From the IMG/VR virus record IMGVR_UViG_3300033149_001989, positions 32,001 through 96,000 of that record: a DNA stretch of 64,000 bases; one strand, 5' to 3'. Of the stretch, positions 1,625 to 63,903 are shown in pieces. The stretch's first letter is position 1. Every line of letters starts with the position of its first letter. The notes under the pieces were generated by a model. The model was given only the letters and a program-made list of their open reading frames with translations. It did no database searches and had not been told where the DNA came from. The position numbers were made by a program, and so were the translations under genes. Origin of the DNA: a virus.

Positions 1625-4600
1625 CTAAGATAGAGAACACGAATCCCCATCACACTCCAAGCACAATTCCAAAACCTGCTGTTGCCTACTCCTATTGCGA
1701 AAAACAGTAAGACCTTTCAAATTAAGGTCATAAGCAAGTTTCAATATTTTTTCAACATCCTCAACAGTCGCACCAAATGGCATATTAATTGTTTTAGAAA
1801 TAGAATTGTTAACATGCCTCTGAAAAGCCGCTTGCATCCTGACATGGTTCTCTGGTAACACTTCCAACGCTGTTCTAAACACCCTCTGCCACTTTTCAGG
1901 AACCTCATCTAAACCAGTAACTCTACCACCATTTTTGATAATCTTATTAACAAGTATTTGAGAGAACCACCCCTCTCGCTTGGCGATAATCTCAAAAATC
2001 GGGTTCACCTCAAAAAACGTCTGGTTTTCAAGAATATTAGTTTTCTGATAAACAATAGCAAATGCTGGTTCAATACCACTTGATGTTTCAGCAATGATAG
2101 AAATAGAACCTGTTGGAGCAATGGTAGTCAAAGTTGCATTCCTTTGTGGTGCTGTTAGTATAGAATCATTAATACTAGGAAAACTACCCCTGTCCTCAGC
2201 CAACTTAATCGATGCCTTACGAGCTTCAACATTAATAAAGTCCATCACCTCTTCCGCAATTACCTCAGCCTCTTTAGAATCGTATGGAATACCGAGCATA
2301 AATAACATATCAGCAAATCCCATTACTCCAAGCCCAATCTTTCGATTTAACTTAACTCGCTTCTCTATAACCTCAAGCGGATAACTAGAAGTATCAATAA
2401 CATCGTCAAGAAACCTGACAGCGTGGTGAACAACCTTCCTTAATGAATTATAAACAATTTGTCCATCCTCAACAAACTTAGACAAATTAATTGAACCAAG
2501 AACACACGCCTCATATGGTAACAAGTCTTGCTCACCACAATTTGACACCACTATACCATTAACAATCAAAGAATGGGTAGTATTAGCAACGACCTCAAAA
2601 ACCTTATCTTCGCCATCGGGCTCAACAGACACCACTTCGGCAGTTTCAGTCCCACCTGCTTTATAATTACTCCAAGTATTAGCAATATTATCTTTTTGTG
2701 GAGACAAGTAAAAGCCGATAATATCTCTAAAAGCCAAGGCATCTCTACCAGTAATATTTAGCATCCAAGCCTGTGAAAAATTACTAACCTTATCCCCATA
2801 TTTTACACCCCTTTTACAACTATGAGCATAGATACTTGACTTGATACCAAAATAGCTCAACATTAATTGGACACGCTCTATTTTATTTTTATTTATAGAA
2901 GTGAGATTTATCACCCTATTTTTCTTGTTTGCTGAACCGTCCGCAGAGAACAACCCTTGTAGTATTCCCTTCATAATAGAAACATTCTTTAATAAGCAAT
3001 CAGGAATATCTCTATCACAACTCAACACACCAAAGTAGTCTCTAGCTTTAGCATTACCCACCTGCATCGTAAATATATTACCTTTTTGCTTATGAAAATG
3101 AACGTTGCCCAACCTAGAACAGTACTTTTCCAAGAACCTCATTGCAAATACTTCTTCACTATTACAAATAAAAGTGTACGAAGCGGGTTCACGCTTACTT
3201 ATATTACCATCGCCTAGCAACCACCCAATAACCCTACCATAATCAAGAGCAGACTCATCAATATCAAAAACGTTTATCGGTGCAATTGTTTGAATACAAA
3301 TTTTATCACCTTTTTTAAGCCCATCTGCTCTTACAAACTGATAAGAATCATAGCCAAAACTTTCTCTACAACCACCAACATCTACCAAAACCTTATGATT
3401 AGCCGTAAGACGTAACGATTGACCAGTGTTCAATATTACTTTATAAACAGGCTCTACACCTTGTGGTATAACTGTAAGTAATGTGCTCGTAACACCATTA
3501 GAATGAACAGAACGCAAATCTGTCAAAACGGGTACTTCACCAATATCTTCTATATTATAAATACCAGATGTAGTAAAAACTTTAGTACCTCTAGCCAACG
3601 CTAAATTTTTTATTAAATGTCCTTGCTTCGGTGTAGGGTTATCTTGTTCTATTTTATCCCAAAAAACAAAACCAGGTTCACCATTTCGCCACGCAGACTC
3701 AGCAATGAACCTAAATAAATGACGAGCATTAACTTTCTTAACAACTTTACCATCCTTTGGATTAAGCAACGAAAAGTCACTATCATTTTTTACTGCTCTC
3801 ATAAATTCATCTGTAATCGCTACAGATATATTAAAATTACTTAAATCGCCCTCTTCCATCTTGCATTGAATAAATTCTATAATGTCTGGATGATTAATCA
3901 ATAACAATCCAAGATTGCCACCACGACGTATGCCACCTTGCTTAATAACATCGCTAATGGTATTAAATATCCTCATAAAAGTAACAGGCCCACTAGCAAT
4001 TCCTTGTGTACTTTTAACAAAGTCTCCTGTTGGTCTTAGTTTAGAGAAGTTGAGACCGACACCACCTCCTGACTTCTGAACCATGCCACAATCCTTAGCT
4101 GTTCGTAAAATCTCCTCCATCGAGTCACCAATTTCAAAGGCATAACAAGCAAACAAATAATTCAGGTCACTATTACCAGCATTAGCAAGGCACGGAGTAT
4201 TCGGCAAGAATATTTGGTTAGCCATCAAATTATAGAAAACTTTACTCCAATAATCTGGATTACTACCATATTGCTTTTCTGCCGATGCCACGTGCTTCGC
4301 CACCCGCTTGAATAATTGCGAAGGTGTTTCTTTAGAACCATTAATATTTTTAAGATACCTCTGTTTCAGGAGTGCCAAGGCATTTACGCCAAGTTTCAAA
4401 TCGTCATCAACACCGATAGCCTCTCTGAAACCACGAATTTCCGCTCTTTTTGCTCTATAGAGAATATATGTCTTGGCAAGCTTAGTTCTACCAGAATTTA
4501 TTAAAACATCCTCTACCTTATCCTGTATTTCCTCTACAGAAATTTCTCTGCTACCATTTATAGTACTAGATACTCTTTCTGCAACCTCCTTAGCAAACCT

Positions 4601-4702
4601 CTCATCAACATCACCAATAGATGCCATCGCCCTGCTAACCGCAGTTACAATCTTATCTGAATTAAACTTTGCTATTCTACCATCACGTTTAATAATTCTC
4701 AA
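1625..4702 (-). CDS. nrdJ: Class II (B12-dependent) ribonucleotide reductase with ATP cone, interrupted by an intein
   Basis: N-terminal ATP cone (IIKRDGR...KI), [71 protein letters not shown]. Confidence 0.92.
2540..3601 (-). mobile_element. LAGLIDADG intein (354 aa) in nrdJ, starting with Ala
   Basis: KNL|[10 protein letters not shown]...LTANH (block B)...GWLLGDG and GLFSADG (LAGLIDADG)...IVNGIVVSN|CGEQ; removal restores NLCGEQ. Confidence 0.85.
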
Positions 4703-9813: not shown

Positions 9814-9824
9814 TATATCTCCTG

Positions 9825-10164
9825 TGGAGGTGGGGAAGGGTCGAACTTCCCGTCCAATATGTCTCCCATTATAATTTCTACAGGTTTAGTTACTTTTTCA
9901 ATTTTCGAAAGGTTTTAGAAAGCAACATCTAAAACTCTCTAGCTTAATTATTTTTACAGTCTTATTAAGCAGCGACTGGTTCTGCTGAGAAACTTTCTTC
10001 TATAACAGCCTCAGCGTCACCGTTGTAGAAGAGTAGCCCTTCATCGAGAACTACGATAAGTACTGATTTCTCAGTTATTTTTTGTGGGCTGTTTTTAATC
10101 TGTTCCCACCTAAGATTACCTGCTTATATAATAAGCCAACACATTGTCGAATCCATGCACCCCC
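9825..10164 (-). ncRNA. ssrA: tmRNA
   Basis: 5' GGGGGTGCATGGATTCGAC; 3' GACGGGAAGTTCGACCCTTCCCCACCTCCA with G3:U pair; resume context AAATAACT-GAG; tag ORF 10072-9968 ending ...PVAA-TAA-TAA. Confidence 0.92.
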
Positions 10165-15624: not shown

Positions 15625-15658
15625 TTCTTTTTAAACCTCCCTTATCGCTTTAACATAC

Positions 15659-15687
15659 ATATTACCACAAGCCATTAAATAAGTCAA
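15659..15687 (-). promoter_or_regulatory. sigma70-type promoter
   Basis: TTGACT-17nt-TAATAT with extended TG. Confidence 0.6.
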
Positions 15688-15900
15688 GTTATATTTTTAA
15701 GCCTTCTTAAATACTCATCCTTACGGCAAAATAGCCATATAGAACAGGACTTAGAACCTGGCTTTTTACAATAGAGTAACTACGTGGCAATAATGTTAGA
15801 ACCGAACAAGCACGTGGGGCAGTAGTGTTATCTTTCTTCTTGTCCCCTAGGCAATAGTGTTGTATAGTAGAACAGCATATGTATTAGAATGGAACGTCAA

Positions 15901-15925
15901 GAATGGGACGGCAAAGTTTAAAAAT
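15901..15925 (+). repeat. 24-25 bp direct repeat, copy 2
   Basis: GAATGGGACGGCAAAGTTTAAAAAT. Confidence 0.8.
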
Positions 15926-16204
15926 GACTCTCCACGAGGAGAAAACGTTGCTAGTCATACCCTATAAGGTGCCCTCTTTTGCCTATTATTACACGTCTTA
16001 CACAATACTCTGAAGCCGTTCTTATATGTAATACCATTAACGGTGTAATCATTAGGATAATTATTATCTCTAAGCCATCTATAAAAAGCAGCACTATCAC
16101 CATGTTTTAATTCTTCCCTATGTTGCTTGCCATATGCGTATTTATAGGGGTAGGATGGAATGCCAATTTACAAAACCAAATCCCACGACGGCTAGAACCT
16201 GTGC

Positions 16205-16233: not shown

Positions 16234-16266
16234 ATATATGAAACTGAGGAAGGGAGATAATACCAA

Positions 16267-16680
16267 ATGGCACGAAAAGGTAAGCAATCTGAGATATACC
16301 ATTGTGACGGTTATTACTATCACAAGGTATGCCCCTCTCGTGGGGAAGAAGACCCTGCCGACATCCGTATTGACAGTCAAGGATGGGTTCGGCGTTCCCG
16401 TTGTATCTGTAAGACATTAGGACTGTCACCATTCTCTACACCAAAATACGAAATGTGCCCCCACTGTGTTGAATTCAAAAAATACTTTCGACACGCACCC
16501 GCTCATGACCGAGCCACTCTCATTGAGCGGACACCGTTCAAGGCAATCAGTTCGGATTACAAAGTGCAACGGGCGTGGAAAACCCAAAGGTCATTAGTGA
16601 AGTTTTTGGCAGACCATCCTACCTGTCATGGTGTAAATGTAAATACAGGACAAATTATCTATGCTAAAACAGTGGTGTAA
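16267..16680 (+). CDS. Hypothetical Cys-rich protein
   Basis: SD GGGAG; first gene after the promoter. Confidence 0.6.
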   Translation: MARKGKQSEIYHCDGYYYHKVCPSRGEEDPADIRIDSQGWVRRSRCICKTLGLSPFSTPKYEMCPHCVEFKKYFRHAPAHDRATLIERTPFKAISSDYKVQRAWKTQRSLVKFLADHPTCHGVNVNTGQIIYAKTVV

Positions 16681-20267: not shown

Positions 20268-20541
20268 ACTAGCAATAGCATTTGTCGGGCTTAATGCTCT
20301 GGATGCGTTCCTGACATTAAAGATACTAGAACAGAACGGAACAGAACTAATGCCCCTTGCTAGAACAGTTATAGAACAACCATTGTTATTCTGGTCATTT
20401 AAAATAGGTGGCAGCACATTAGCGGCTTACCTTGTGCTTAGGCTGAACAATAGAAAATTTAGGTCTGCGAGTATTTTGGGGATACTGGTAATGGTTATGG
20501 TAGGTATTTGTATGTTTAACCTAGTAGGTATGCTAACTTGA
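20245..20541 (+). CDS. Small membrane protein (DUF5658-like)
   Basis: LNALDAFLT...GTELMPL...K; three hydrophobic segments. Confidence 0.6.
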   Translation: MRYEICHKLAIAFVGLNALDAFLTLKILEQNGTELMPLARTVIEQPLLFWSFKIGGSTLAAYLVLRLNNRKFRSASILGILVMVMVGICMFNLVGMLT

Positions 20542-21278
20542 CATCATTCTTGGCATATAATAAAATAAAGACATTGAGAAAATGGGAGGAAACCGTGCTT
20601 AGTAACAGCGAAGTAGCTAACCAATTTGCACTTGGCAAAACACGTGGTAAAAGCAATCGTATGACGATTGAGGGTGATACTCTCTACTCTTACTCGGCAC
20701 CGATTGCGATTAGAGATGGTGAGAAATTTATTATCTCGAATAGAGCGTCATTTCTAGGGGGATGCCCCTATTCAATGACTACCTCTCATCATATATCTTG
20801 CGTTTACTATGCTTGTAAAGGAAAGGGCACGATAAGGCTGGTTGATGGTTGGGCAGAGCGTGGTAAACCTGAGTTTTATATTCCTCAATTACCTAGTTAC
20901 AAGACAGTCAGTGGGCTTATAAGAGGGTTTGTTACCCATCCATATTGGAATGGCACATGGACAGGAATATGGCACCCCGACACAGGAACTAAGGAAGTCC
21001 ATTGGCGAACAAAGAACGACCAACTTATCTCGCCAGAGGGTGATGTAGTAGCATTTCGTGAGTATATAAGACAGCCTTGTAATAAGGACTGTGATAATTG
21101 CCTTGCTCGGTTTCTTTGTCTGTCTAATAAAGAATTATTTAATGGGTATGTTGTAACAATTATAAAGGATAGCCCATACTTCGAAAAAGTAAATTATCAC
21201 ATTCAGAAAGCATACAAGTCTTATCGGTGTAAGTATCCCTCTAACGATTTGATGCTAGTTAGAAATACATATAAGTAA
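20538..21278 (+). CDS. Hypothetical protein carrying CxxCxxRFxC[ST] module (true start probably GTG about 20595)
   Basis: CNKDCDNCLARFLCLS; the annotated TTG is the -35 box of promoter 20538-20566. Confidence 0.65.
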   Translation: MTSFLAYNKIKTLRKWEETVLSNSEVANQFALGKTRGKSNRMTIEGDTLYSYSAPIAIRDGEKFIISNRASFLGGCPYSMTTSHHISCVYYACKGKGTIRLVDGWAERGKPEFYIPQLPSYKTVSGLIRGFVTHPYWNGTWTGIWHPDTGTKEVHWRTKNDQLISPEGDVVAFREYIRQPCNKDCDNCLARFLCLSNKELFNGYVVTIIKDSPYFEKVNYHIQKAYKSYRCKYPSNDLMLVRNTYK

Positions 21279-31740: not shown

Positions 31741-32047
31741 ACGAGGTAGAAATTTTAGAGGAAATGTTATCTATCTACAAACGATACTTTGAGGTAGTCC
31801 AAGAAATGGGGGCTATCACAATGTCAGAGGATGATAGTAAGCGACTGGCTGAACTGGAAACAAAGTTAGAGGCAATTCGGGATTAGTTGAACATGGTGAG
31901 AAGAATAATTCTTAATAATAAGGAGAGGGGCAATAAGAATATAGTAAATCGCTACGAGAGTTAACTAAAATAAGATTTAGGATGGTAAAAAGTTTATTAT
32001 GATGGTTAACAAAGAGTATTACATAATTACATAAATGATGTGGTAAG

Positions 32048-52371: not shown

Positions 52372-53499
52372 ATGAATGATAATAATTTAGCCAAAAAACT
52401 ATTTGGTAAAGATTACCAAGAATTCACTGAGCAAGACCCATTTAATCCGATGAACAGCCTATCAGGATTCATATCTCGCAAATCCAATGAATACTATGGT
52501 GCACTACTAATTACTAAAATCAACGGTAAAACTACAGAACAGCTTATTATGGGTACACCCAAAATGCACTACCCATTTACCACAAGACAAGATGGTTCAC
52601 GCAAATATGAGTTTCCTATAGCTAAGAACGTAGAGGTTTATGAGAAATTAGATGGTACTAATATTCTTACCTACACCTATAAACATAATGGCAAAGATTA
52701 TATCACATTTAAGACACGTCTCCGCCCCTTCGTAGCATCAGGGCGATTTGGTAATTTCTATGAGATGTGGCAAGAGGTTGGTATACCTCATATTGACCAA
52801 ATTAAAACCTTAATGGAAACCCACAAATGCAATCTTTCATTTGAGATTTATGGGGCTAGAAATCCTCACTTGATAATGTATCCTAATTCTCTAGATATAG
52901 CCCTACTCTTTGGAGTAACGAATACTGGGAGGATAATTAGTCCATCACAGTTTACAACCAGTTTACCCACCCCTCCGTTACTTGTTACCATTACTGCTGA
53001 ATATCAAACCCATTATGAAAATATACAAAAACAATTACAGGATGGGCTAAAACAAGAGGACGAGGGTTACTATTCAGGGCAAGAAGGTACCGTATGGTAT
53101 CTAACTACCATTGATGGAAGATGTGTTCAACTAAAATGTAAACCTGAAACAATAGAAGCTATCCACTTCTCGGCAGGGTGCGGTATTAATAAGAATGTGC
53201 TTCTTGCTACTTGTTGGAATGCCTTTGAGAATGTTGACAAATTGACGGTGGACTTTATCAAACAACTTTTGCTTGAGGAGTTTCCGCAACACGTTGTAGA
53301 AGCTAACCATGCTCTCATTCAGAAGTCCATCGCATTCGTTGAGGCTGAAGCAGAGTTTCGCCAAAAAGTAATTGAGAAATATAGAGTGTTTGGTAAAAAC
53401 ATCTTGTTGGATAAGGTAAAGGTTATGCGTCATATGTCGCAACTCTTTAACAAGAAAGATATGAGAAAGGTTCATAGCATAATAACCAACTTAGTATAG
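52372..53499 (+). CDS. RNA ligase-like nucleotidyltransferase
   Basis: PKMHY, YEKLDGTNI, FEIYG, QEGTV, LKCK. Confidence 0.7.
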   Translation: MNDNNLAKKLFGKDYQEFTEQDPFNPMNSLSGFISRKSNEYYGALLITKINGKTTEQLIMGTPKMHYPFTTRQDGSRKYEFPIAKNVEVYEKLDGTNILTYTYKHNGKDYITFKTRLRPFVASGRFGNFYEMWQEVGIPHIDQIKTLMETHKCNLSFEIYGARNPHLIMYPNSLDIALLFGVTNTGRIISPSQFTTSLPTPPLLVTITAEYQTHYENIQKQLQDGLKQEDEGYYSGQEGTVWYLTTIDGRCVQLKCKPETIEAIHFSAGCGINKNVLLATCWNAFENVDKLTVDFIKQLLLEEFPQHVVEANHALIQKSIAFVEAEAEFRQKVIEKYRVFGKNILLDKVKVMRHMSQLFNKKDMRKVHSIITNLV

Positions 53500-53542: not shown

Positions 53543-54937
53543 ATGTCGTTAAAGATTCAAGAGTGGAATAAAAAATACTTACTAAAGGAGCTAACTAGAA
53601 AGTTCAATGAGAAAGGCTTTAACCTGTACTTAGTAGGTGGTTTTGTTAGAGACACTATTATGGGTAGAGAAACACACGATATAGATATGACTACAGATGC
53701 TCTCCCCCAAGATACTAAAGAAATTCTTGAAGAGCTTGGTAGTATTTATACAGTAGGTAAAGAGTTTGGAACTATTGGATTAAACTTGGATGGACAAACA
53801 ATAGAAGTAACTACTTTTAGAAAAGAGGTCTATCCTACAGAAAGTAGAAAACCTATTGTTGAGTGGGGGACTTCTTTGGTTGATGACTTAGCAAGACGTG
53901 ACTTTACTATTAACAGTATAGCCAGAAACGAACTCACGGGCGAAATAATTGACCCTTTTGGTGGAATAGAGGATATAAGGAAGAAAGTTGTTAGAGTGGT
54001 CGGTAGCAACGATAGATTTAACGAAGACCCGTTAAGGATGCTTCGTGCAATTCGTCTTGCCTGTGAACTTAATTTCAAACTACACATCAATATTTCTCAC
54101 CCAGAAAGAATCAAGATAGTATCAAAAGAGAGAGTTCGTGATGAGCTAGTTAAGATACTACTTTCAAGAAAACCAACATTTGGTATTAGAAAGTTGTGCA
54201 AGATTGGTTTGATGCAATATATTATACCAGAATTTGTGGAACTAAAGAATGTGGCACAAGGTAAAAATCATATTAAAGATGCCTTCGAGCACTCCTTGCT
54301 GGTTCTTTACAAGGGTTCTCACATAGACCATAACGAGAGAAATCTTGCATTTCGTCTTGCCTGCTTACTACATGATATTGGTAAATCAGATACTAAGATA
54401 ATTGATGATGATGGTGTACACTTTTATGGTCACCACTCAGTTGGTGCCAGAAAAGTAAGAAAAATACTATGCAGGTTGCATTTCGACAGTAATATTGTTG
54501 AAGACGTTGCTATGCTAGTAAAGTATCATATGACACCAATTATGCTTCAAAGAGAAATAGTCAAGGGCAAGATAAAGAAGAGAATAATTATGAGGCTTGT
54601 CCGTAGGGTCGGGGTAAGTAATATTTATCTCCTGCTTGACCTTGTAAAATGCGATATACGCTCTTCGAAGAATCCAAGATATAAATTTGTGACTATCCTT
54701 ACTAGGTTGGTAAACGAATGTATGGCAGAGAAACCAGAAACTCTAGTCTCTCCAATAGATGGTCACGAGATTATGAAAGAATTTAATCTTAAACCAGGTG
54801 TATTCATAGGTGAAGTTAAGAACTATCTCACTAATTTAGTAATAGATGGTAAGTTAAAGAAGGGGGATAGAGAAGGTGCCTATGCCGAGGCTAGGAGATA
54901 CATCTACAACAAAAGACGAAAAGTTGGAGTTGCTTAA
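53543..54937 (+). CDS. cca: CCA tRNA nucleotidyltransferase with HD domain
   Basis: LVGGFVRD, DIDMTT, EVTTFR, DLARRDFTINSIA, EDPLRMLRA, LLHDIGK, FYGH. Confidence 0.9.
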   Translation: MSLKIQEWNKKYLLKELTRKFNEKGFNLYLVGGFVRDTIMGRETHDIDMTTDALPQDTKEILEELGSIYTVGKEFGTIGLNLDGQTIEVTTFRKEVYPTESRKPIVEWGTSLVDDLARRDFTINSIARNELTGEIIDPFGGIEDIRKKVVRVVGSNDRFNEDPLRMLRAIRLACELNFKLHINISHPERIKIVSKERVRDELVKILLSRKPTFGIRKLCKIGLMQYIIPEFVELKNVAQGKNHIKDAFEHSLLVLYKGSHIDHNERNLAFRLACLLHDIGKSDTKIIDDDGVHFYGHHSVGARKVRKILCRLHFDSNIVEDVAMLVKYHMTPIMLQREIVKGKIKKRIIMRLVRRVGVSNIYLLLDLVKCDIRSSKNPRYKFVTILTRLVNECMAEKPETLVSPIDGHEIMKEFNLKPGVFIGEVKNYLTNLVIDGKLKKGDREGAYAEARRYIYNKRRKVGVA

Positions 54938-56898: not shown

Positions 56899-56980
56899 TA
56901 TTCAATCACCCGAACCCCAGTCTATTATAATTTCTACTACAAATTAAGACCCTTTTTGCAGTATCTAATTAAAAAGAATT

Positions 56981-57351
56981 GCAAGCAAGCCCGTAAGCGG
57001 GATTCTGTTTTATGTGAACATTTATCTTGGTTCAATGTTACCATTAAACTCTTTGCCACCCACCCGAAAGCTAGCCGAGCACATCATTGCTTTCTGCTTG
57101 GTGTTGCACCAGATGGAGTTTACCTCTCCTACTTACCTTAAACAAGTCTTGTTAGAACTATTTTTGGTCGTAAGTTTTTATAGTCCCACACACGTCACCC
57201 TGCCCAGTTATCCGTTTACACATAAACTTCGTGGTAGAGATAAGTAGGAGTTTAGCACTTGTCGTCAGGTTACCCTGCCAGGGTGTTACCCTGCATCCTG
57301 CTCGGTGGTGTCCCGACTTTCCTCCCCGTAGGGCGTCCACTCAGCTTGCTC
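56981..57351 (-). ncRNA. rnpB: RNase P RNA (catalytic domain conserved, specificity domain atypical)
   Basis: P1 GAGCAAGC/GCTTGCTT; CR-I GAGGAAAGTCGGG; GGTAAACTCC...GTGCAA; CR-IV AGATAAAT; CR-V ACAGAATCCCGCTTA. Confidence 0.88.
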
Positions 57352-57582
57352 ACAATCTCTTTTGTATACTGTCCTCCCGTAATTTATCCGATTCCAGATT
57401 CTTTCAAATCCAAAATGTAACCCGAAACAAATACCCTCAACAACAAGGGCTAACCCCAAAGCAATTTTAAGGTCAGGAATAAAGAAGGAAAATATAAGAG
57501 TATCTATTGCTATTTCAATTGCTCTAAACGAAATCGCTTTTGCTAGTGACCGCTTCTTTGTTTCGTGTACTTTTAATTCCAA
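57286..57582 (-). CDS. DUF2061-like small membrane protein
   Basis: ETKKRSLAKAISFR...ERIWNRINYG; ORF reads into the 5' end of rnpB. Confidence 0.6.
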   Translation of the reverse strand: MELKVHETKKRSLAKAISFRAIEIAIDTLIFSFFIPDLKIALGLALVVEGICFGLHFGFERIWNRINYGRTVYKRDCEQAEWTPYGEESRDTTEQDAG

Positions 57583-57594
57583 TTATTTTCCTTT

Positions 57595-57682
57595 TGGCGG
57601 AGGGGGAGGGATTCGAACCCTCGGTGGTTTGACCCACGTCAGTTTTCAAGACTGCTCCTTTAATCCGCTCAGGCACCCCTCC
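57595..57682 (-). tRNA. tRNA-Ser(TGA)
   Basis: Cloverleaf, long variable arm, loop CT-TGA-AA, encoded CCA. Confidence 0.92.
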
Positions 57683-57761
57683 TATAGTAATATCCCAACC
57701 TGTACTCTTTGTCATAACTTTTATTGGACAACTCTCCGATATTTACCTATCCTATTTTTTA

Positions 57762-58445
57762 TCACAGTAAACTTCTTATAACTTTTTTAGTATCTGTAAC
57801 ACTATCTACCTTAATACACTTTACTCCAACTTCTTTAACCGCAAAATCATTACCGATAAATAAAATTTCCTTCTTTTTGAAGCCCTGCTCCATAATTTTT
57901 GAAATAGCGAATGCTTTATTAATACCCTTCTTAGTAATATCTATTGAAGTTGTTCCACCTATTTTTATCTCTAGACCAACAAGTAAAGCCTCAAGTCTCG
58001 CACACATTATTTTACGTTTTGAGGCATCCGCATCCCATTTACTTTTTAATTCAAGTGGTGCATTCCGACCTAACGCTGAGAACGTTATTTGTGTTCCTCT
58101 ATCCTCTATAATATCCCCGTAAGAATTCCCCCAAGAAATATCAATACCAACTGAGGCTGTTTCTAACGCTCTATAGATTTTATTCTTAACATTTTCGTTT
58201 AGGTTATCTTCATAAATACATTTGTAATGCCCATCGTACATCTTAGAACCGTTTGTGGGAAATAGCATCAATTTATCGTGTTCAATAGTTAACTGAGAAA
58301 TAAATTGTTTTATATCACCACCAGAAATAACTGCCACAAAATACTTATCAAGTAATTTATATAACAGTTCTTTCATTTCACTATCAACCAAACATTTACT
58401 TTCGGTTAATGTACCATCAAGGTCAAAAACAATTACTTTCTTCAT
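57762..58445 (-). CDS. HAD-IIB hydrolase (phosphomannomutase-like)
   Basis: FDLDGTL, ISGG, EDRGTQITFSALG, IGGTTSIDIT..GINKA, FIGND. Confidence 0.85.
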   Translation of the reverse strand: MKKVIVFDLDGTLTESKCLVDSEMKELLYKLLDKYFVAVISGGDIKQFISQLTIEHDKLMLFPTNGSKMYDGHYKCIYEDNLNENVKNKIYRALETASVGIDISWGNSYGDIIEDRGTQITFSALGRNAPLELKSKWDADASKRKIMCARLEALLVGLEIKIGGTTSIDITKKGINKAFAISKIMEQGFKKKEILFIGNDFAVKEVGVKCIKVDSVTDTKKVIRSLL

Positions 58446-58446
58446 G

Positions 58447-58519
58447 CTGCCGAGGGTGGACTCGAACCACCAATTACAGGTTCAAAGCCTGCTGTCCTTA
58501 CCAATTAGACTACTCGGCA
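58447..58519 (-). tRNA. tRNA-Gln(TTG)
   Basis: Cloverleaf, loop CT-TTG-AA, no encoded CCA. Confidence 0.9.
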
Positions 58520-58791
58520 TTTGTTAAGCACATAAATTTATGTTCGCAATACTTACATTTTTGTACTAGTTGTTTTGTTCTTACTTTATTTTCCCAACAT
58601 TCCCAACAAGGACGTAATTGCCTTGAATAGTTTGCATTGTGATATTTATTTGGACATAAATGGTGAACCTCATTACTAAATCCATATTTTACATCCCACT
58701 TAAAGAATTCTCTGCAAGTTAAACAGAATCCATACTTAGGATTAAAATCTTTCCATCGAGGCTGTTTCCAATTTGTTATTAAGTCATCCAT
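58510..58791 (-). CDS. Cys-rich protein carrying the module (C-terminal)
   Basis: ATG 58791 right after tRNA-Thr; CKYCEHKFMCLT. Confidence 0.65.
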   Translation of the reverse strand: MDDLITNWKQPRWKDFNPKYGFCLTCREFFKWDVKYGFSNEVHHLCPNKYHNANYSRQLRPCWECWENKVRTKQLVQKCKYCEHKFMCLTNAE

Positions 58792-58793
58792 TG

Positions 58794-58875
58794 AGCCGCC
58801 AGCAGGACTCGAACCCGCAATGAGTTTCCTCAGCATTTTACAAGAATGCTGCACTACCAATTGTGCGATGGCGGC
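58794..58875 (-). tRNA. tRNA-Thr(TGT) with long variable arm
   Basis: GCCGCCA/TGGCGGC-T; loop CT-TGT-AA; extra hairpin TGAG-GAAA-CTCA. Confidence 0.85.
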
Positions 58876-58984
58876 TAATAACTTTTACCTCGACGTATCT
58901 TTGACACCGATAGTTTTTCCGCCTTCTCTATTTTTGGATTTATATGATACACAATCAAATGGTTCAAGCAATATCATTTCATTT

Positions 58985-59060
58985 TGGTGGGGGTAGGGGG
59001 ATTCGAACCCCCACTGACAGATTGAAGGTCTGTCATCCTAGCCTTTTAGATTATACCCCC
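58985..59060 (-). tRNA. tRNA-Glu(TTC), C at position 33
   Basis: ACAGA-CC-TTC-AA-TCTGT; encoded CCA. Confidence 0.8.
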
Positions 59061-59262
59061 ATTTTTCTCAAACCATTTTTTAAGTTCTTTGACATTACCT
59101 GCTAAACTATTTAGATACTTTACTACATTACCAAGTTCAGTAATTGCTTCATTCAAATGTTTTTCACAGTCCTTTGTTCTCTCTTTCCCCAACTCCAAAT
59201 TCATTTGTTCTAACGTAATATCATCAAATTCACCCATTTCAACCTCAACGCAAGTTACTATC

Positions 59263-59323
59263 TGGTCTGGGTGGTTGAATTCGAACCAACGACCTCCTGG
59301 CTCTGTCACTAACGTACACCCAG
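59263..59323 (-). pseudogene. Truncated tRNA-like gene (acceptor stem, T-arm and CCA intact; D and anticodon arms collapsed)
   Basis: CTGGGTG...GTTGG-TTCGAAT-TCAAC-CACCCAG-A-CCA; 61 nt; Pro-like C1:G72, A73. Confidence 0.7.
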
Positions 59324-59324
59324 A

Positions 59325-59400
59325 TGGTCAGGGTGGGAGAATTTGAATCTCCTCTAAATGCTCCCAAAGCACTTGTGCTACCGTTAAACACTACACCCTG
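59325..59400 (-). tRNA. tRNA-Pro(TGG)
   Basis: Loop TT-TGG-GA, encoded CCA. Confidence 0.9.
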
Positions 59401-59434
59401 TACATTCCGATTACCTAACACATATTCCTCTTCT

Positions 59435-60034
59435 TTAATAATCAATTACTATTGGTTTGTTAACCAAATGATAACATTCATTGACCACCGAAGCGTTTAT
59501 AAATCTAGTTTCACGATTATACTTCTCTCCATACGCTTCGTGAATATGACCAAAAACGTGAAATTGCGGTTTAATTTCCCTTACCTTGTCCAATAATGAT
59601 TGCGAACCAGCACAAACGTTCCCAATTGTTCTATCCAAGAATCCCCTTGGTGGCGAGTGAGTTATCAAAATATCCGTTCCTCTTGGTATCTGTTCCCACA
59701 TCTTTGCAAGTTCTTTTTCACCAGTCATAAAAGCCCAAGCACCAAATTTAGGGCTAAACGGGGAAGCCCAAACCTTTATTCCTTTAAACTTTAGCGGCTC
59801 GTTTATCAAGGTTATTGCATTCTTTAATTGCCTATCTCTCGTAACAAACCTGAAATCGTGGTTACCTGGTGTAAAGATTATATAATTAAATGGCAACGTT
59901 CCCAACCAAGCATCAAACATATCAACTTCCTCATCATTGCCCATCATGGTGGCATCACCAGCGTGGATTAAAACATCACCTTCTGGTAACTCTGGTGTTA
60001 ACCCATGTGTATCTGATATAATTACTAATCTCAT
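59435..60034 (-). CDS. Calcineurin-like metallophosphoesterase
   Basis: ISDTHG, HAGD, GNHD, ITHSPP, FGHIHE. Confidence 0.9.
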   Translation of the reverse strand: MRLVIISDTHGLTPELPEGDVLIHAGDATMMGNDEEVDMFDAWLGTLPFNYIIFTPGNHDFRFVTRDRQLKNAITLINEPLKFKGIKVWASPFSPKFGAWAFMTGEKELAKMWEQIPRGTDILITHSPPRGFLDRTIGNVCAGSQSLLDKVREIKPQFHVFGHIHEAYGEKYNRETRFINASVVNECYHLVNKPIVIDY

Positions 60035-60108
60035 TGGTGGAGGTTACGAGACTCGAACTCGTCTTAATGCCTTGCAAGGGCATTGTTCTCCCGCTGAACT
60101 AAACCCCC
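60035..60108 (-). tRNA. tRNA-Ala(TGC)
   Basis: G3:U70, loop CT-TGC-AA, encoded CCA. Confidence 0.92.
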
Positions 60109-60214
60109 TTTATTTAATATCTCTTCCCAAGTCAAACCGAGATTACGCATACACCAATGTACTGCCTTGTGGCAAATACCACATTTGTGCGTCAGTTATA
60201 CTATAATCATCCAT

Positions 60215-60306
60215 TGGTGGGAGAGGTAGGACTTGAACCTACAACGTTTACCCTGTGGGTGGGAGTTTTACAGACTCCTGCCTTCACCAATTCGGCTCAC
60301 TCTCCC
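60215..60306 (-). tRNA. tRNA-Tyr(GTA)
   Basis: Loop CT-GTA-AA, long variable arm, encoded CCA. Confidence 0.9.
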
Positions 60307-60352
60307 TAATGTTCCCAAATTGAGGTGGTTTAAATTCTTTAGAGCTACCTCT

Positions 60353-60487
60353 CAGGGTTTTCAGCAGACCATCTACCTTCCACAGCGGATACAGCACCAT
60401 GATGATTGCCGTTCACTCAAACTGGTTAGATTTTCCCGCACCTGCCCCTAGCTACGGCTAGTTAGGTGTATCTGCTTACTAACCCTG
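60353..60487 (-). ncRNA. Candidate structured ncRNA inside the tRNA array (unassigned)
   Basis: Closing stems CAGGGTT/AACCCTG and AGCAGAT/GTCTGCT; inner CACCT/AGGTG and CTAGC-CGTA-GCTAG. Confidence 0.45.
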
Positions 60488-60562
60488 TGTCGGTGATGAG
60501 ATTCGAACTCACACTGAGTAGATTTTAAGTCTACTACCTCTGCCAAATTGGGTTACACCGAC
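60488..60562 (-). tRNA. tRNA-Leu(TAA), short variable loop
   Basis: Loop CT-TAA-AA, A73. Confidence 0.85.
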
Positions 60563-60895
60563 TTAATCCAACCAACCTTTCAGGTATCGTGACTTTCTAA
60601 TTGCCAAATCAACTTCTGCAAACTGGTCAATCACATCTAGCATCTGACGTGCTTCTCTAATAGGAATATAACCCCAATGCCTTCGAGGATTACCGCACAC
60701 ACAACAAGAACAGGGAACTCTGGTTTTTCTATAAATTCCTAGAAATCTCTCAATTTCATAATCTGTAAACTTGTACCTTGTACCAGATTGTTTTTTATTT
60801 CTAGGATTAAACCCGTGCCATTTCTTGAAAACTTTGGTGGCTACCTTATTGGCAATGACTAATCTATTTCCACGCACGAAACCTCCGTTGCTCAA
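60563..60895 (-). CDS. Hypothetical phage protein
   Basis: KTRVPCSCCVCGNPRR. Confidence 0.6.
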   Translation of the reverse strand: MSNGGFVRGNRLVIANKVATKVFKKWHGFNPRNKKQSGTRYKFTDYEIERFLGIYRKTRVPCSCCVCGNPRRHWGYIPIREARQMLDVIDQFAEVDLAIRKSRYLKGWLD

Positions 60896-60928
60896 TCTAC
60901 ATATTTATCGCTATCACCTCAGTTGGCT

Positions 60929-61007
60929 TGGCGGGAGTGGAAGGACTTGAACCCTCATTACCTCGTTTTGGAGACGAATATTTTTTATCCAATTAAACTA
61001 CACTCCC
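60929..61007 (-). tRNA. tRNA-Trp(CCA)
   Basis: Loop CT-CCA-AA, G73, encoded CCA. Confidence 0.88.
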
Positions 61008-61014
61008 TTAATAG

Positions 61015-61088
61015 TACCCAGGGAGAGATTCGAACTCTCAAAATCTCGCTTTTGAGGCGAACACGTCTACCAATTGCGTCACCTGGGC
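61015..61088 (-). tRNA. tRNA-Leu(CAA), short variable loop
   Basis: Loop CT-CAA-AA, A73. Confidence 0.85.
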
Positions 61089-61244
61089 TTATAGGTTTTT
61101 TCGTTCACAATATATGATATAAGACTTTTATTTATCGCACAACAGGGTATATGACACCCCACACCTTCTTGCTAATCTAATTTCCTCGGCTTGTTCTTCG
61201 ATATTCTTCTTCATTATGACAAGGTATAATCACTACCGCATCTG

Positions 61245-61317
61245 AGCGGGTGATGGGTTTCGAACCCACTACCTTCTGGACGGCAACCAAACGTTCATCC
61301 AAATGAACTTCACCCGC
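61245..61317 (-). tRNA. tRNA-Gly(GCC)
   Basis: GCGGGTG/CACCCGC-T; loop TT-GCC-GT. Confidence 0.88.
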
Positions 61318-61520
61318 TTATTTCTTTTTCCACTTTATGTTTGCTCTCAAGAATTCAAACCAAGTGTCAAAATTTACATAATGCACAACTTCTTTGTTTT
61401 GTGTATAGCAAGAAAACCTGATAGGACAACACTCACAACCCCTCTGAACATTCTACTGTGAAGGGGTATATTCCTGCTAATGCTTTATCCCTGTATCAAT
61501 GTATAATTCCATTATTCCAT
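61318..61520 (-). pseudogene. Frameshifted small gene carrying the CxxCxxRFxC[ST] module
   Basis: ...IYPFTVECSEG / GCECCPIRFSCYTQNKEVVHYVNFDTWFEFLRANIKWKKK*; module at 61437-61402. Confidence 0.55.
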
Positions 61521-61521
61521 T

Positions 61522-61596
61522 TGGGGTGAGCGGTGGGTATCGAACCCACTTCAAGAGGGTCACAACCTCTTATTCTGCTTTTGAACTACGCCCACC
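61522..61596 (-). tRNA. tRNA-His(GTG)
   Basis: G-1:C73, loop TT-GTG-AC, encoded CCA. Confidence 0.9.
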
Positions 61597-61597
61597 A

Positions 61598-61752
61598 TTT
61601 CTACCAGCGAATGTCTCAATCTGACTATTACAGTTTGGGCAGAGAGGTCTCAAGTTCTCTAGTCTAGAATTGTCTCTTACACCGTTTTTATGGTCAAGAA
61701 TAAGAACCATAGGTTTGCCTTGCCAAATAGGTTCTAATCCACAAATTGCACA
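61598..61752 (-). pseudogene. HNH endonuclease remnant
   Basis: CAICG...WQGKPMVLILDHKNG..DNSRLENLRPLCPNCNSQ, preceded by an in-frame stop. Confidence 0.7.
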
Positions 61753-61798
61753 TTAGATAATTGCTATATCTTACTTCTTTTCCTACGTTTCATACTTA

Positions 61799-62296
61799 TC
61801 ACACCAAAATTTTAGTAAACGTTAGCTGACTGGGTAAGGGTATCTTATATGTAAACCACGCTGTTGCAAACCAAGGTATTTGCTTACCAGACGGTATTTC
61901 GAACTTTACTCTCTTATTCATCAAAAGAAGACTAATCCCATATCGTGAGAATAATTCCTGTCTTGCTTCCGATTCCAAAGCCGTTAAAGGAAGAAGTAAA
62001 GCGAATGGTTTACCAAGACTGTAACATCGCTCCAGCACTCTTGTCTTAATGGAGTAAGGTGGATTACTGACAATGGCATCAAAGTTATCGGGACATTTAG
62101 TCAAACAGTCATAATTAGTACCAATAACCTTAAATCCTTTCTCACGCAAAACAGTAGTAACATTACCAGTAGCTTCCGAAAGTTCCCAAATAGTCCACAC
62201 CTTATTCAGGTAAGGAATTAGTGGTTCCACCGCATAATTAGGAGTATATACTTCATCCTGTTTTTTGTTATGTAATAATCTAAGTTTACTATCCAT
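61799..62296 (-). CDS. Adenine amino-methyltransferase (NPPY)
   Basis: DEVYTP.YAVEPL, IVSNPPYS, KPFALLLP. Confidence 0.75.
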   Translation of the reverse strand: MDSKLRLLHNKKQDEVYTPNYAVEPLIPYLNKVWTIWELSEATGNVTTVLREKGFKVIGTNYDCLTKCPDNFDAIVSNPPYSIKTRVLERCYSLGKPFALLLPLTALESEARQELFSRYGISLLLMNKRVKFEIPSGKQIPWFATAWFTYKIPLPSQLTFTKILV

Positions 62297-62344
62297 AGTT
62301 TTTTCGTCTTACTCTACAATACTTTTTATCTTCTTTCATATTAA

Positions 62345-62373
62345 ATAGTACCACGTGCCCGACAAAAAGTCAA
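62345..62373 (-). promoter_or_regulatory. sigma70-type promoter
   Basis: TTGACT-17nt-TACTAT, TG extension. Confidence 0.65.
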
Positions 62374-62393
62374 GTACATCCTTTCAGCCGAAA

Positions 62394-62470
62394 TGGTGGA
62401 GATAACAGGATTCGAACCTGTACTAAATTGGTTCTTAGCCAATTGCCTCTACCAATTGGGCTATATCTCC
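62394..62470 (-). tRNA. tRNA-Leu(AAG), short variable loop
   Basis: ATTGG-CT-AAG-AA-CCAAT; A73; encoded CCA. Confidence 0.85.
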
Positions 62471-62513
62471 AGAGTGGTCACTAAAATAAAAACTTTATGC
62501 TTCAATATATCAA

Positions 62514-62588
62514 TGGTTCCCAAGTGAGGATTCGAACCTCAAATTCAACGTTCAGAGCGTTACGTCCTACCTGTTAGACTACTTGGGA
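62514..62588 (-). tRNA. tRNA-Gln(CTG)
   Basis: Loop CT-CTG-AA, encoded CCA. Confidence 0.88.
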
Positions 62589-62593
62589 ATAAT

Positions 62594-62650
62594 TGGTTGC
62601 GGTAACTGGGATTCGAACCATCGGTTAACAGCCGAGTCTATTATACCGCA
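62594..62650 (-). pseudogene. Truncated tRNA-Asn(GTT)-like gene (no D-arm, shortened variable/T region)
   Basis: TGCGGTA/TACCGCA-A-CCA; TCGG-CT-GTT-AA-CCGA; GGTTCGAATCC; 57 nt. Confidence 0.7.
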
Positions 62651-62690
62651 AAATATTCTTTCCTTTACAATCTATTACGTTCGGCAGGAA

Positions 62691-63209
62691 TTAGATTTGT
62701 CCAGTACTAAACTTTTCTAACATTTCTTTTTGTTCGTCAGTTAAAGCTTTTGGTAGAACTACCCTTAAAATAAAGTAGTATTTATTATTACCATCTTGTA
62801 CATGTATTATTTGTCCATTTTGGGACAATTCTGGTATTTTTAAAGAAATTTTTTTACCAATATCAACAACCTTCACCCCACCAAGAATCATTGTTAACCA
62901 GTCCACTGGGATTTCTATCTGAACAGTTCTGACAGTATACCCACTACCCCAACGGGCAAAAACATCATCAAATGGATTACTAAAATTAAACTCCCTGTAA
63001 AATATATCAAACGGGTTTATATTTTGCCTATGTTTTAGTCGCTTCGTTAACCCCTCGTAGGCTTCGTTGATTTCTTTGAACCTATTCTCTGCTTCGATAG
63101 ATTTATTCACATCAGGATGCCACTTTCGTGCTAACCTACGATATGCCTTCTTAATCTCATCAAGTGAGGCATTTCTGTTTACCCCTAGTATCTTATAGTA
63201 ATCCTTCAT
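62691..63209 (-). CDS. J-domain (DnaJ-like) co-chaperone
   Basis: KDYYKILGV...[15 protein letters not shown]...FKEINEAYE; short DnaJ C-terminal segment. Confidence 0.9.
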
Positions 63210-63235
63210 ATTTCCCTCATAATACGTGGATTTGC

Positions 63236-63628
63236 TTATGAGACAAACCTAGTTATAGCCCTCCCCTTTAATATATTCACTAACGTAGGAAAAGGAATAT
63301 GCTTTGCTCCTGGCAAATCATAAAGCATCATTTTAGCACCAGCATAATTTAGGGTGTGTATTATAATTTGCTTACTTCTTATATTATTATCAGCGATATA
63401 TTTAGCTACCCACCACCCAGTATTGGGGTCAAGTGAATCTACATAAACCTTTCCACCCAAGTCGTGGTCTAGAAACATAATATCAAAGTCATTTTCATTC
63501 TTTAAGATTTCAATTGCTGTATCTCTGGAGTCCGCCACAAAAATCACAGATTCATTAATCACGTCTTTCAACAGTCTCAACAGAGTGTTTTGTCGTTCTA
63601 CCATATCATCTAAGATAAATATTTTCAT
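63236..63628 (-). CDS. Stand-alone receiver-like domain protein
   Basis: MKIFILDD...MFLDHDLG...TG..VA...IIIHTLN; start moved to ATG 63628 because upstream sequence is tRNA. Confidence 0.75.
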
Positions 63629-63630
63629 TT

Positions 63631-63707
63631 TGGCTCTGGTGGCTAGGCTCGAACTAGCATATTTCTCCTTAACAGGGAGGTTCATTACCTTATTATGATA
63701 CACCAGA
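63631..63707 (-). tRNA. tRNA-Asn(GTT)
   Basis: Loop CT-GTT-AA, G73, encoded CCA. Confidence 0.88.
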
Positions 63708-63711
63708 ATCG

Positions 63712-63786
63712 AGGCACGGGTGGGAATTGAATCCACGTATGCGGTCTTGCAAACCGCCGCCTAAACCTAACTCGGACCACCGTGCC
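63712..63786 (-). tRNA. tRNA-Cys(GCA)
   Basis: Loop TT-GCA-AG, U73. Confidence 0.88.
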
Positions 63787-63828
63787 ACTTTCTTCATTTT
63801 ATCTTTATACGGTATTTATTTTTCTATG

Positions 63829-63903
63829 CCCCCCGTAGCGGACTTGAACCGCTAATCTCTCTGCTCGACAGGCAGGTATTTTAGCCGATTAAACTAACGA
63901 GGG
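63829..63903 (-). tRNA. tRNA-Asp(GTC)
   Basis: Loop CT-GTC-GA, G73. Confidence 0.85.

Follow-up and report, generated by a model that had tools for sequence, protein, structure and literature searches.

How an RNase P RNA could come to lose the module with which the tRNA elbow is held, and what it could still do afterwards, are the questions raised by an RNase P RNA gene (rnpB) in the virus record IMGVR_UViG_3300033149_001989 of IMG/VR. Positions 32,001 to 96,000 of that record, a stretch of 64,000 nucleotides referred to here as the window, were analysed, and coordinates are counted from the first letter of that stretch. The specificity domain (S-domain) of RNase P is thought to hold the tRNA elbow through the T-loops of conserved regions II and III (CR-II and CR-III). 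In the window rnpB, CR-II, the native helix P12 and CR-III are all absent. It is very probable, on the evidence presented below, that a bacterial type A gene had this module overwritten by a cassette encoding an HNH endonuclease, and that the endonuclease open reading frame (ORF) was later lost.

The catalytic domain of the window rnpB

The original prediction, made from the sequence, was of a phage RNase P RNA with intact catalytic landmarks, and a covariance-model search had been proposed as a check. That search was performed with cmscan. It identified 56978-57352 on the minus strand (375 nt) as a bacterial type A RNase P RNA, with a match to RF00010 (RNaseP_bact_a) of 176 bits (E value 4e-55; gathering score 100 bits) that spans model positions 1-367. 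A second match, to the same clan, overlapped this one at a lower score and was dropped from the family report on the window. No other RF00010 match was found across the entire 133,760-bp record, which has direct terminal repeats and a CheckV completeness of 100, and in which large ORFs match phage families (e.g. ribonucleotide reductase, ATPase). The parts of the gene are listed below.

56978..57352, minus strand: rnpB, bacterial type A (RF00010, 176 bits; whole-RNA fold z = -3.0)
57315..57324, minus strand: CR-I (GAGGAAAGUC), including the P4 5′ strand with its bulged U (consensus alignment)
57254..57298, minus strand: retained proximal S-domain, comprising the P7 5′ strand, the P8 hairpin, the P9 hairpin (GUAA loop) and the P10/P11 5′ strands (alignment; P7 5/5, P8 5/5, P9 5/5 and P10/11 7/7 paired)
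57251..57253, minus strand: three-nucleotide joiner AAA at the place of CR-II (J11/12; about 11 nt, AACAGAGACGAG, in relatives); the CR-II of the model is deleted
57238..57250, minus strand: 5′ strand of a clamp stem, 10 Watson–Crick pairs, 13 with one G-U (inverted-repeat search and RNAfold; the same 10 letters in L055 and L066)
57139..57237, minus strand: 99-nt loop, a decayed homing-endonuclease cassette (leader and ATG shared with L055; interior without a match)
57126..57138, minus strand: 3′ strand of the clamp stem (inverted-repeat search; the TAG stop codon of the L055 HNH gene lies inside the corresponding strand)
57116..57124, minus strand: P11 and P10 3′ strands, after a single A at the place of CR-III (alignment; in relatives GUGAAAC stands immediately 5′ of the strand)
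56994..57028, minus strand: CR-IV region (57019-57028), P2 3′ strand, and CR-V with the P4 3′ strand (56994-57008) (consensus alignment; P2 6/7 and P4 8/8 paired)

It is apparent that the catalytic domain is complete. CR-I, CR-IV, CR-V, P1 and P4, all of which had been predicted to be intact, align to RF00010, and standard pairs are found at 72 of the 73 positions in helices P1, P2, P3, P4, P5, P7, P8, P9, P10/11, P15 and P18. P4 is paired at all eight positions and the pseudoknot with its bulged U is present; the L15 segment CGGGU is likewise retained in the covariance alignment. Helices P13 and P14 are absent from the window, from every member of its clade, and from the unrelated phage genes at loci L015 and L045 (loci in other viral contigs are designated by L and a number). 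Their loss in bacteria is termed 'not unusual' in the available part of PMC8172020. The catalytic domain is not of an archaeal type: bacterial type A was the sole family reported, and P10/P11 are kept.

Replacement of CR-II, P12 and CR-III by a clamped insert

In the covariance alignment of the window RNA, the nine model positions of CR-II (ACAGAAAac) are deleted. At CR-III, a partial 'GGGUGA' within the insert was aligned and the last three model positions were deleted; this does not represent a conserved CR-III, since it is missing from L055, which has identical junctions. That partial match is all that the alignment places within the insert of the canonical CR-II and CR-III, whose presence there would have spoken against the original prediction. 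In a by-eye reading of the window RNA, made without a motif scan, neither ACAGA nor UGAAA was seen between P11 and its 3′ strand. The prediction that CR-II and CR-III had been replaced by an unrelated insert closed by a stem is thus borne out by the alignment deletions and by the stem itself, referred to here as the clamp.

The arms of the clamp, CTCCTACTTA (57250-57241) and TAAGTAGGAG (57135-57126), enclose 105 nt, exactly as predicted for a 10-bp stem at these coordinates. A repeat search extended the arms to 13 nt (57238-57250 and 57126-57138; 92% complementary as DNA), and these were the sole inverted repeat reported in 56950-57400. The stem is present in both the minimum free energy and the centroid folds from RNAfold. 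The resulting layout runs from P11 (GUGCU) through three A's to the clamp, and from the clamp through one A to the P11/P10 3′ strand; the corresponding joiners in relatives are about 11 nt and about 8 nt long. An alternative P12 drawn by the covariance model (57250-57240 with 57214-57202) was set aside in favour of the long-range clamp: it contains one mismatch and three G-U pairs, and its sequence is not present in L055. The unusual junctions are not an assembly artefact, for they recur in L055 and L066, which are independent assemblies, and in contigs from two sequencing runs.

Probable origin of the insert in an HNH endonuclease cassette

The nature of the insert is revealed by L055, in which the loop of the same stem holds an ORF of 167 aa, on the rnpB strand (15628-16131), with its stop codon inside the 3′ strand of the stem. 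The product is an HNH endonuclease (PF01844, 26.7 bits against a cut-off of 21.4; phrog_10822, E value 3e-36). An intact homologue of this ORF is found in L066, in a contig that stops before the 3′ half of rnpB. Behind the HNH gene of L066, with stop and start codons overlapping, stands a second ORF, at least 166 aa long (L066:2-499, minus strand). This second ORF gave no Pfam or PHROG match, and a comparison with a methyltransferase-like ORF of the window, considered as possible kin, showed the two to be unrelated. Its presence indicates that the cassette can carry cargo.

The window loop retains the ends of this cassette. In about its first 25 nt, and in the ATG at 57221-57223, the loop agrees with the leader and start codon of the HNH gene in L055; from that start codon a remnant ORF of 21 codons runs to 57158. 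When the window RNA was compared by blastn with L055 and L066, the match ran through RNA position 139, and the first 22 nt of the insert are those of L055. Altogether, the retained cassette sequence amounts to about 37 nt at the beginning, with the start codon among them, and roughly 10-17 nt at the end. The middle 60-70 nt gave no match to the HNH gene (best tblastn E value 2.0; blastn-short against L055 matched the ends only). An ORF with the HNH motif, which is present at this site in L055 and L066, is thus not found in the window insert.

Two further contigs, X1 and X2, are from DNA sequencing runs and are short assemblies of low depth. In the 153-nt X1 contig, 57231 and 57135 are linked by 23 nt, of which 21 are, by eye, the terminal codons of the HNH gene in L055; on the two flanks of the contig, 1 of 89 and 1 of 41 letters depart from the window. 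The X2 contig is common with the window over 56993-57159, apart from a 4-nt insertion, and then diverges. The HNH ORF has therefore been lost more than once, and differently, while the junctions persist. The clamp is kept wherever contigs cover both of its strands.

The cassette is flanked by an 8-nt direct repeat, TAAACTCC, at 57247..57254 and 57115-57122 on the minus strand, and likewise in L055. The downstream copy (57115-57122) is the native P11/P10 3′ strand. The repeat may have been left by the original event, as a footprint of insertion or recombination.

A further trace of the same endonuclease family is found elsewhere in the window, within the tRNA array.

61597..61793, minus strand: second, broken and internally deleted copy of the HNH family of the rnpB cassette (53% identity to residues 107-163 of the L055 HNH protein)

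This copy begins with MKRRKRSKI (nine codons) and a stop, followed later by the C-terminal HNH core with one TAA inside it. It sits between the methyltransferase-like ORF (61799-62296, minus strand; phrog_799, E value 6e-29) and a tRNA-His gene.

Two other observations concern mobile or expanded elements in these phages. At 1625-4702 (minus strand), the window encodes a 1025-aa ribonucleotide reductase large subunit that contains an intein, in which lies a LAGLIDADG endonuclease domain (PF14528 at residues 578-663; the splicing-domain match is weak); this is a homing element of a second type in this phage. In L055, a segment of about 85 extra nt (approximately 16237-16321, minus strand) takes the place of the P3 UACG tetraloop of the clade, and is a second expansion in that rnpB.

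Distribution of S-domain states among phage rnpB genes

Viral contigs were scanned with a CR-I pattern, which matched at 51 loci; the 14 of these on contigs of at least 80 kb were taken to cmscan. RF00010 was above threshold in 12 of these 14 (L047, L019, L025, L049, L035, L046, L028, L052, L051, L015, L045 and L009), each with tRNA genes in the same locus; nine of the 12 scored 259-277 bits. From these sequences, an RNase P RNA of their own, situated within a tRNA array, appears to be quite frequent in large phages. In L028 and L051 the rnpB gene is accompanied by a tmRNA. A further contig that matched the CR-I pattern, 385 kb long, has a GOLLD RNA in its tRNA region (L039:5070-5488, minus strand; RF02032, 212 bits) and no RF00010 match at threshold.

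The clade of the window was found through its CCA-adding enzyme (L053-L056, 61-70% identity) and through a clade-specific pattern of 21-23 nt (L057-L066). After the removal of duplicate contigs, nine distinct rnpB sequences of the clade remained, that of the window included. Six of them (L053, L054, L056, L060, L061 and L065) keep an ACAGAGA-type CR-II directly after P11 and the GUGAAA of CR-III directly before the P11 3′ strand; the P12 in between ranges from about 20 nt (L061) to about 190 nt (L054). The other three (window, L055 and L066) show the 5′ junction GUGC-UAAA-CUCCUACUUA. The 3′ junction UAAGUAGGAG-A-GGUAAACUCC is common to the window and L055; the L066 contig ends earlier. The collections were scanned by exact patterns only, and the carriers accordingly number at least three loci plus the two run contigs.

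The small genes of L015 (325 nt) and L045 (276 nt) also keep both CR-II and CR-III. L045 (1199-1474, minus strand; 276 nt) and the clade member L061 (4404-4682, plus strand; 279 nt), with a tiny P12, no P13/P14 and both conserved regions, are natural minimal S-domains. In L054, the enlarged P12 contains an ORF of 43 codons (20420-20551, minus strand), the stop of which is the UGA of the CR-III GUGAAA; this may be chance or a micro-gene. L060, L061 and L066, with a large P12, a minimal P12 and the HNH cassette, respectively, share one record-name prefix, so that alleles with and without the cassette may meet.

The window region gave no match in a blastn search of 50,697 GenBank phage records. 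The exact 21-nt clade pattern gave 0 matches in genome contigs, and there is thus no lead to a bacterial donor or host.

Probable mobility of the cassette

The backbones of the genes were compared over the 71 columns of the alignment that extend from CR-I through P11. From the cassette-free L060 and L065 the window departs in 4 columns, and from the carriers L055 and L066 in 9; L066, in turn, differs at a single column from the cassette-free L061. The pair set of P4 varies as well: the window, L060 and L065 have CGGG/CCCG, and the five remaining full-length sequences, L055 among them, have CCGA/UCGG; the P4 5′ strand of L066 is, by eye, CCGA. The CCA-adding enzyme of L055 has the lowest identity to that of the window among the four relatives (61% vs 65-70%). 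A presence/absence polymorphism is thus seen at one homologous site in differing backbones, with the cassette in three of the nine distinct rnpB sequences of the clade. The occurrence of the cassette in several backbones suggests homing with short co-conversion tracts.

A 15-mer of the variant junction was found at 29 loci in viral contigs, with rnpB only at L092, which is the L055 contig. The HNH protein was found at 56 loci, and rnpB flanks occur only at L097, again the L055 contig. In these collections the HNH family is widespread and the rnpB insertion site is rare.

Helix covariation

Covariation among phage homologues, a further check proposed with the original prediction, was determined by mapping the Rfam-derived helices on an alignment of eight sequences (73 pairs, 575 cells). 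Standard pairs were found in 95.7% of the 575 cells. Changes on both sides were observed in 25 of the 73 pairs, a figure reached in 0 of 500 shuffles; slid controls gave at most 3 pairs. P4 shows two compensatory pair changes across the eight sequences, and there are private compensatory changes in the window (P3, U-A to C-G) and in L055 (P8, C-G to U-A). The one mismatch of the window, at the P2 base, is common to all eight. The L9 loop is a GNRA tetraloop in all sequences (GUAA or GAAA; GAAA in L055), and L18 is GUAA in all. The score of the window RNA, 176 bits, is at the level of L054 (175.6), which bears CR-II and CR-III. The P10/11 5′ strand of L055 is misaligned, and its value of 2/7 paired is an alignment artefact. 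RNAalifold alone wrongly paired CR-III with the P2 3′ strand; the Rfam-derived structure was used for the counts.

Proposed history and function of the variant ribozyme

The history proposed here is that an HNH cassette overwrote J11/12 (with CR-II), P12 and J12/13 (with CR-III), in sense orientation at the P12 position, and that the clamp helix of 10-13 bp would close the cassette and join both halves of the ribozyme. In the window phage the endonuclease ORF would since have been lost, leaving a 99-nt unconserved loop. The cassette would spread by homing into cassette-free rnpB genes, and by replacing the CR-II/CR-III stretch would destroy its own target. The P12 position would serve the endonuclease as a safe harbour, with the transcript of the tRNA array and rnpB as its messenger and the clamp folding the ribozyme round an ORF of approximately 500 nt.

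The predicted fold consists of the full type A catalytic domain and P7-P11, with P11 leading through a 3 × 1 internal loop into the clamp and its dispensable loop. The RNA would still be made. In relatives, tRNA genes lie within 1-12 nt of rnpB, and since they abut it the RNA could be released there by tRNA processing. No match to RnpA (PF00825) was found in the phage record at E ≤ 1, which implies a protein partner from the host. Constructs of RNase P RNA that consist of the catalytic domain alone are active with protein. With host RnpA, the window RNA would cut pre-tRNA leaders, guided by the acceptor stem, the leader itself and the 3′ CCA (through L15), with no contact to the elbow formed by the T-loop and D-loop. 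The loss of that contact leads to the expectation of lower affinity and looser substrate choice. As the loss of the module is best explained by a selfish element, the relaxed reading of substrates would be a consequence and not a design.

Weighing of the explanations

The window rnpB is probably the scar of a homing endonuclease in a ribozyme that works through its catalytic domain and host RnpA, without reading the elbow. Retained catalytic function is a little better than an even prospect. The broader claim, that homing-endonuclease colonisation of a ribozyme gene has created a bacterial-type RNase P without a T-loop elbow reader, is offered tentatively, as slightly less than an even one. 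A number of points weigh against a working enzyme. CR-II is present in all nine of the other phage rnpB genes inspected (L053, L054, L056, L060, L061, L065, L015, L045 and that of the Microcystis phage MaAM05), and GUGAAA at CR-III in eight of the nine, MaAM05 carrying GGGUGCAA instead. This conservation, which extends even to the two smallest genes (276-279 nt), suggests that the T-loops matter and that their loss may cripple the enzyme. The letters of the clamp are identical in all carriers, so that the helix has no support from covariation, and the stability of the loop interior is that of shuffled sequence (z = -0.02). The host has an RNase P of its own, and the phage may be able to do without a second. 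Little can be concluded from an intact catalytic domain if the cassette arrived recently, and with a cassette that moves between backbones the compensatory changes cannot be placed before or after its arrival. Homing itself and the target of the endonuclease are putative.

Much of this would be accounted for by early decay, in which the elbow reader was destroyed, the phage uses the RNase P of its host, and rnpB is a recent pseudogene. This is the main rival, although an unlikely one. It would agree with the conservation of CR-II and CR-III in the other phage genes, with the decay of the HNH ORF in the window and of its second copy at 61597-61793, with the unstructured and unconserved loop interior, and with the lack of an RnpA gene in the phage. 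It is less easily reconciled with a gene in which 72 of 73 helix positions are paired, all aligned conserved segments are kept and the Rfam score equals that of an intact relative; with the lineage-specific compensatory changes in P3 of the window and P8 of L055; or with the retention of the GNRA loops L9 and L18, the former changed from GUAA to GAAA in L055. Moreover, the architecture recurs across five or more populations or assemblies (window, L055, L066, X1 and X2); loss of the ORF took different courses, and the junctions, and the clamps where covered, were retained.

Two other explanations are both highly improbable. One is that the RNA loses the insert, by self-splicing as an intron or through a cut by a double-strand RNase at the clamp, to give a compact or two-piece ribozyme. 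An endonuclease ORF within a structured RNA gene does resemble many phage introns, and a 13-bp clamp continuous with P10/11 could be a substrate of the RNase III type. However, no intron or other ribozyme family was reported by cmscan at E ≤ 1: in 56900-57450 of the window the only match was RF00010, and in 15400-16420 of L055 the matches were pieces of RF00010, a tRNA and two weak, unrelated families. The non-coding part of the cassette is about 30 nt in L055, and the whole window insert is 125 nt, too small for the core of a group I or group II intron. The intron reading was rejected on these two grounds. Excision would in any case not restore CR-II and CR-III, as neither lies in the flanks. 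The other explanation, which is that of the original prediction, is that the module was altered by selection for unusual phage tRNAs or for targets other than tRNA. An active enzyme that has lost its elbow reader must recognise substrates in a relaxed or changed way, and the architecture recurs in several phage populations. Against this, the loops of the carriers hold, respectively, an HNH gene, an HNH gene with a second ORF, 99 nt and about 33 nt; contents so wholly different do not represent a conserved new RNA module. In the closest relatives without the cassette, the tRNA arrays are similar and the module next to them is the canonical one. Nor do the tRNAs of the window look odd: 15 of the 17 score at least 52 bits on RF00005. 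The phage RNase P RNA, its intact catalytic domain and its replaced module, as originally described, therefore stand, and the insert as an adaptation to substrates finds no support, given the HNH gene at the same site in L055 and L066 and the mere cassette ends in the window. The scar of a homing endonuclease in a probably working ribozyme remains the preferred reading.

Genomic context

Other features in the surroundings of the window rnpB are listed below.

57595..63903, minus strand: 17 tRNA genes, lying directly upstream of rnpB, with HAD, metallophosphatase and DnaJ ORFs among them
57286..57582, minus strand: ORF of 98 aa for a DUF2061 membrane protein, the last 67 nt of which overlap the 5′ end of rnpB (PF09834, E value 1.1e-5, residues 13-64)
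53543..54937, plus strand: tRNA nucleotidyltransferase (CCA-adding enzyme), just downstream of rnpB (PF01743, E value 8e-35; phrog_2244, E value 1e-72)
52372..53499, plus strand: RNA-ligase-like protein, a weak assignment (PF09414, E value 3.4e-4, below the curated cut-off; phrog_562, E value 3.6e-6)
9822-10164, minus strand: tmRNA, about 47 kb from rnpB (RF00023, 112.6 bits)

The 3′ CCA is encoded in 9 of the 17 tRNA genes; tRNA-Pro is ambiguous in this respect.

Comparison with known systems

In comparison with RF00010 type A RNAs in general, P1-P5, P7-P11, P15, P18, CR-I, CR-IV, CR-V and the P4 pseudoknot with its bulged U align and covary. The window copy differs in being phage-encoded and, like its whole clade, in the lack of P13/P14; within the clade, the window, L055 and L066 stand alone in the replacement of the module of CR-II, the native P12 and CR-III.

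The best precedent for such a natural RNA is the archaeal type T RNase P of the Thermoproteaceae (Pyrobaculum), which also lacks P12, CR-II and CR-III, and which works with several protein subunits. These S-domain-poor RNAs are reported to be catalytically active in the available part of PMC7191817. The analogy with type T, drawn in the original prediction, is a fair one for how the window RNA could still work, but it does not extend to membership, since the catalytic domain of the window is of bacterial type A; type T RNAs are archaeal, with another type of catalytic domain, and in them the region is simply absent, with no clamp and no loop derived from a mobile element. Among bacteria, loss of P12 is described as 'highly unusual', with Mycoplasma fermentans and some bacteria of the candidate phyla radiation as cases, in the available part of PMC8172020. 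Those RNAs share with the window a reduced distal S-domain in a bacterial-type RNA, but they are the products of essential chromosomal genes and contain no endonuclease cassette.

The seg and mob genes of phage T4 are free-standing phage homing endonucleases and exemplify homing without an intron. The cassette resembles free-standing phage HNH endonucleases in being a small ORF that is present or absent at one site, with varied flanks and decay after fixation. It differs from them in its location, embedded in sense within a ribozyme gene at P12 and closed by a clamp, rather than intergenic or in an intron or intein. In the intervening sequences of bacterial rRNA, extra sequence replaces a helix tip and is held by a long stem, to be excised by RNase III; in the window rnpB, by contrast, conserved functional joiners have also been lost.

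To our knowledge, no homing endonuclease has previously been described inside an RNase P RNA in the absence of an intron. Neither RNase P RNAs encoded by phages nor endonuclease genes within rnpB were the subject of any paper found in the parts of the literature consulted, and supplementary tables of large-phage surveys may list such genes. The cultured Microcystis phage MaAM05 carries a complete canonical type A rnpB with CR-II, P13 and P14, at a site where no feature is annotated.

L153:1462-1861, corresponding to about 115284-115683 of MW495066.1, plus strand: MaAM05 rnpB (RF00010, 251.8 bits)

The term 'RNase P' has 0 occurrences in the available text of the MaAM05 paper.

Significance

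A ribozyme gene, with no intron, would be a new habitat for a homing endonuclease. These results draw attention to the RNase P RNA genes carried by phages in tRNA arrays, including the unannotated one in a cultured Microcystis phage. If the proposed history is true, phage rnpB alleles with and without the cassette constitute a natural experiment on the contribution of the specificity domain in vivo. A single clade offers alleles with the module (the smallest in L061; also the small gene of L045), with a live endonuclease (L055 and L066) and with a scar only (the window and X1), and their comparison would test what the module contributes while the catalytic domain and the protein partner are held constant.

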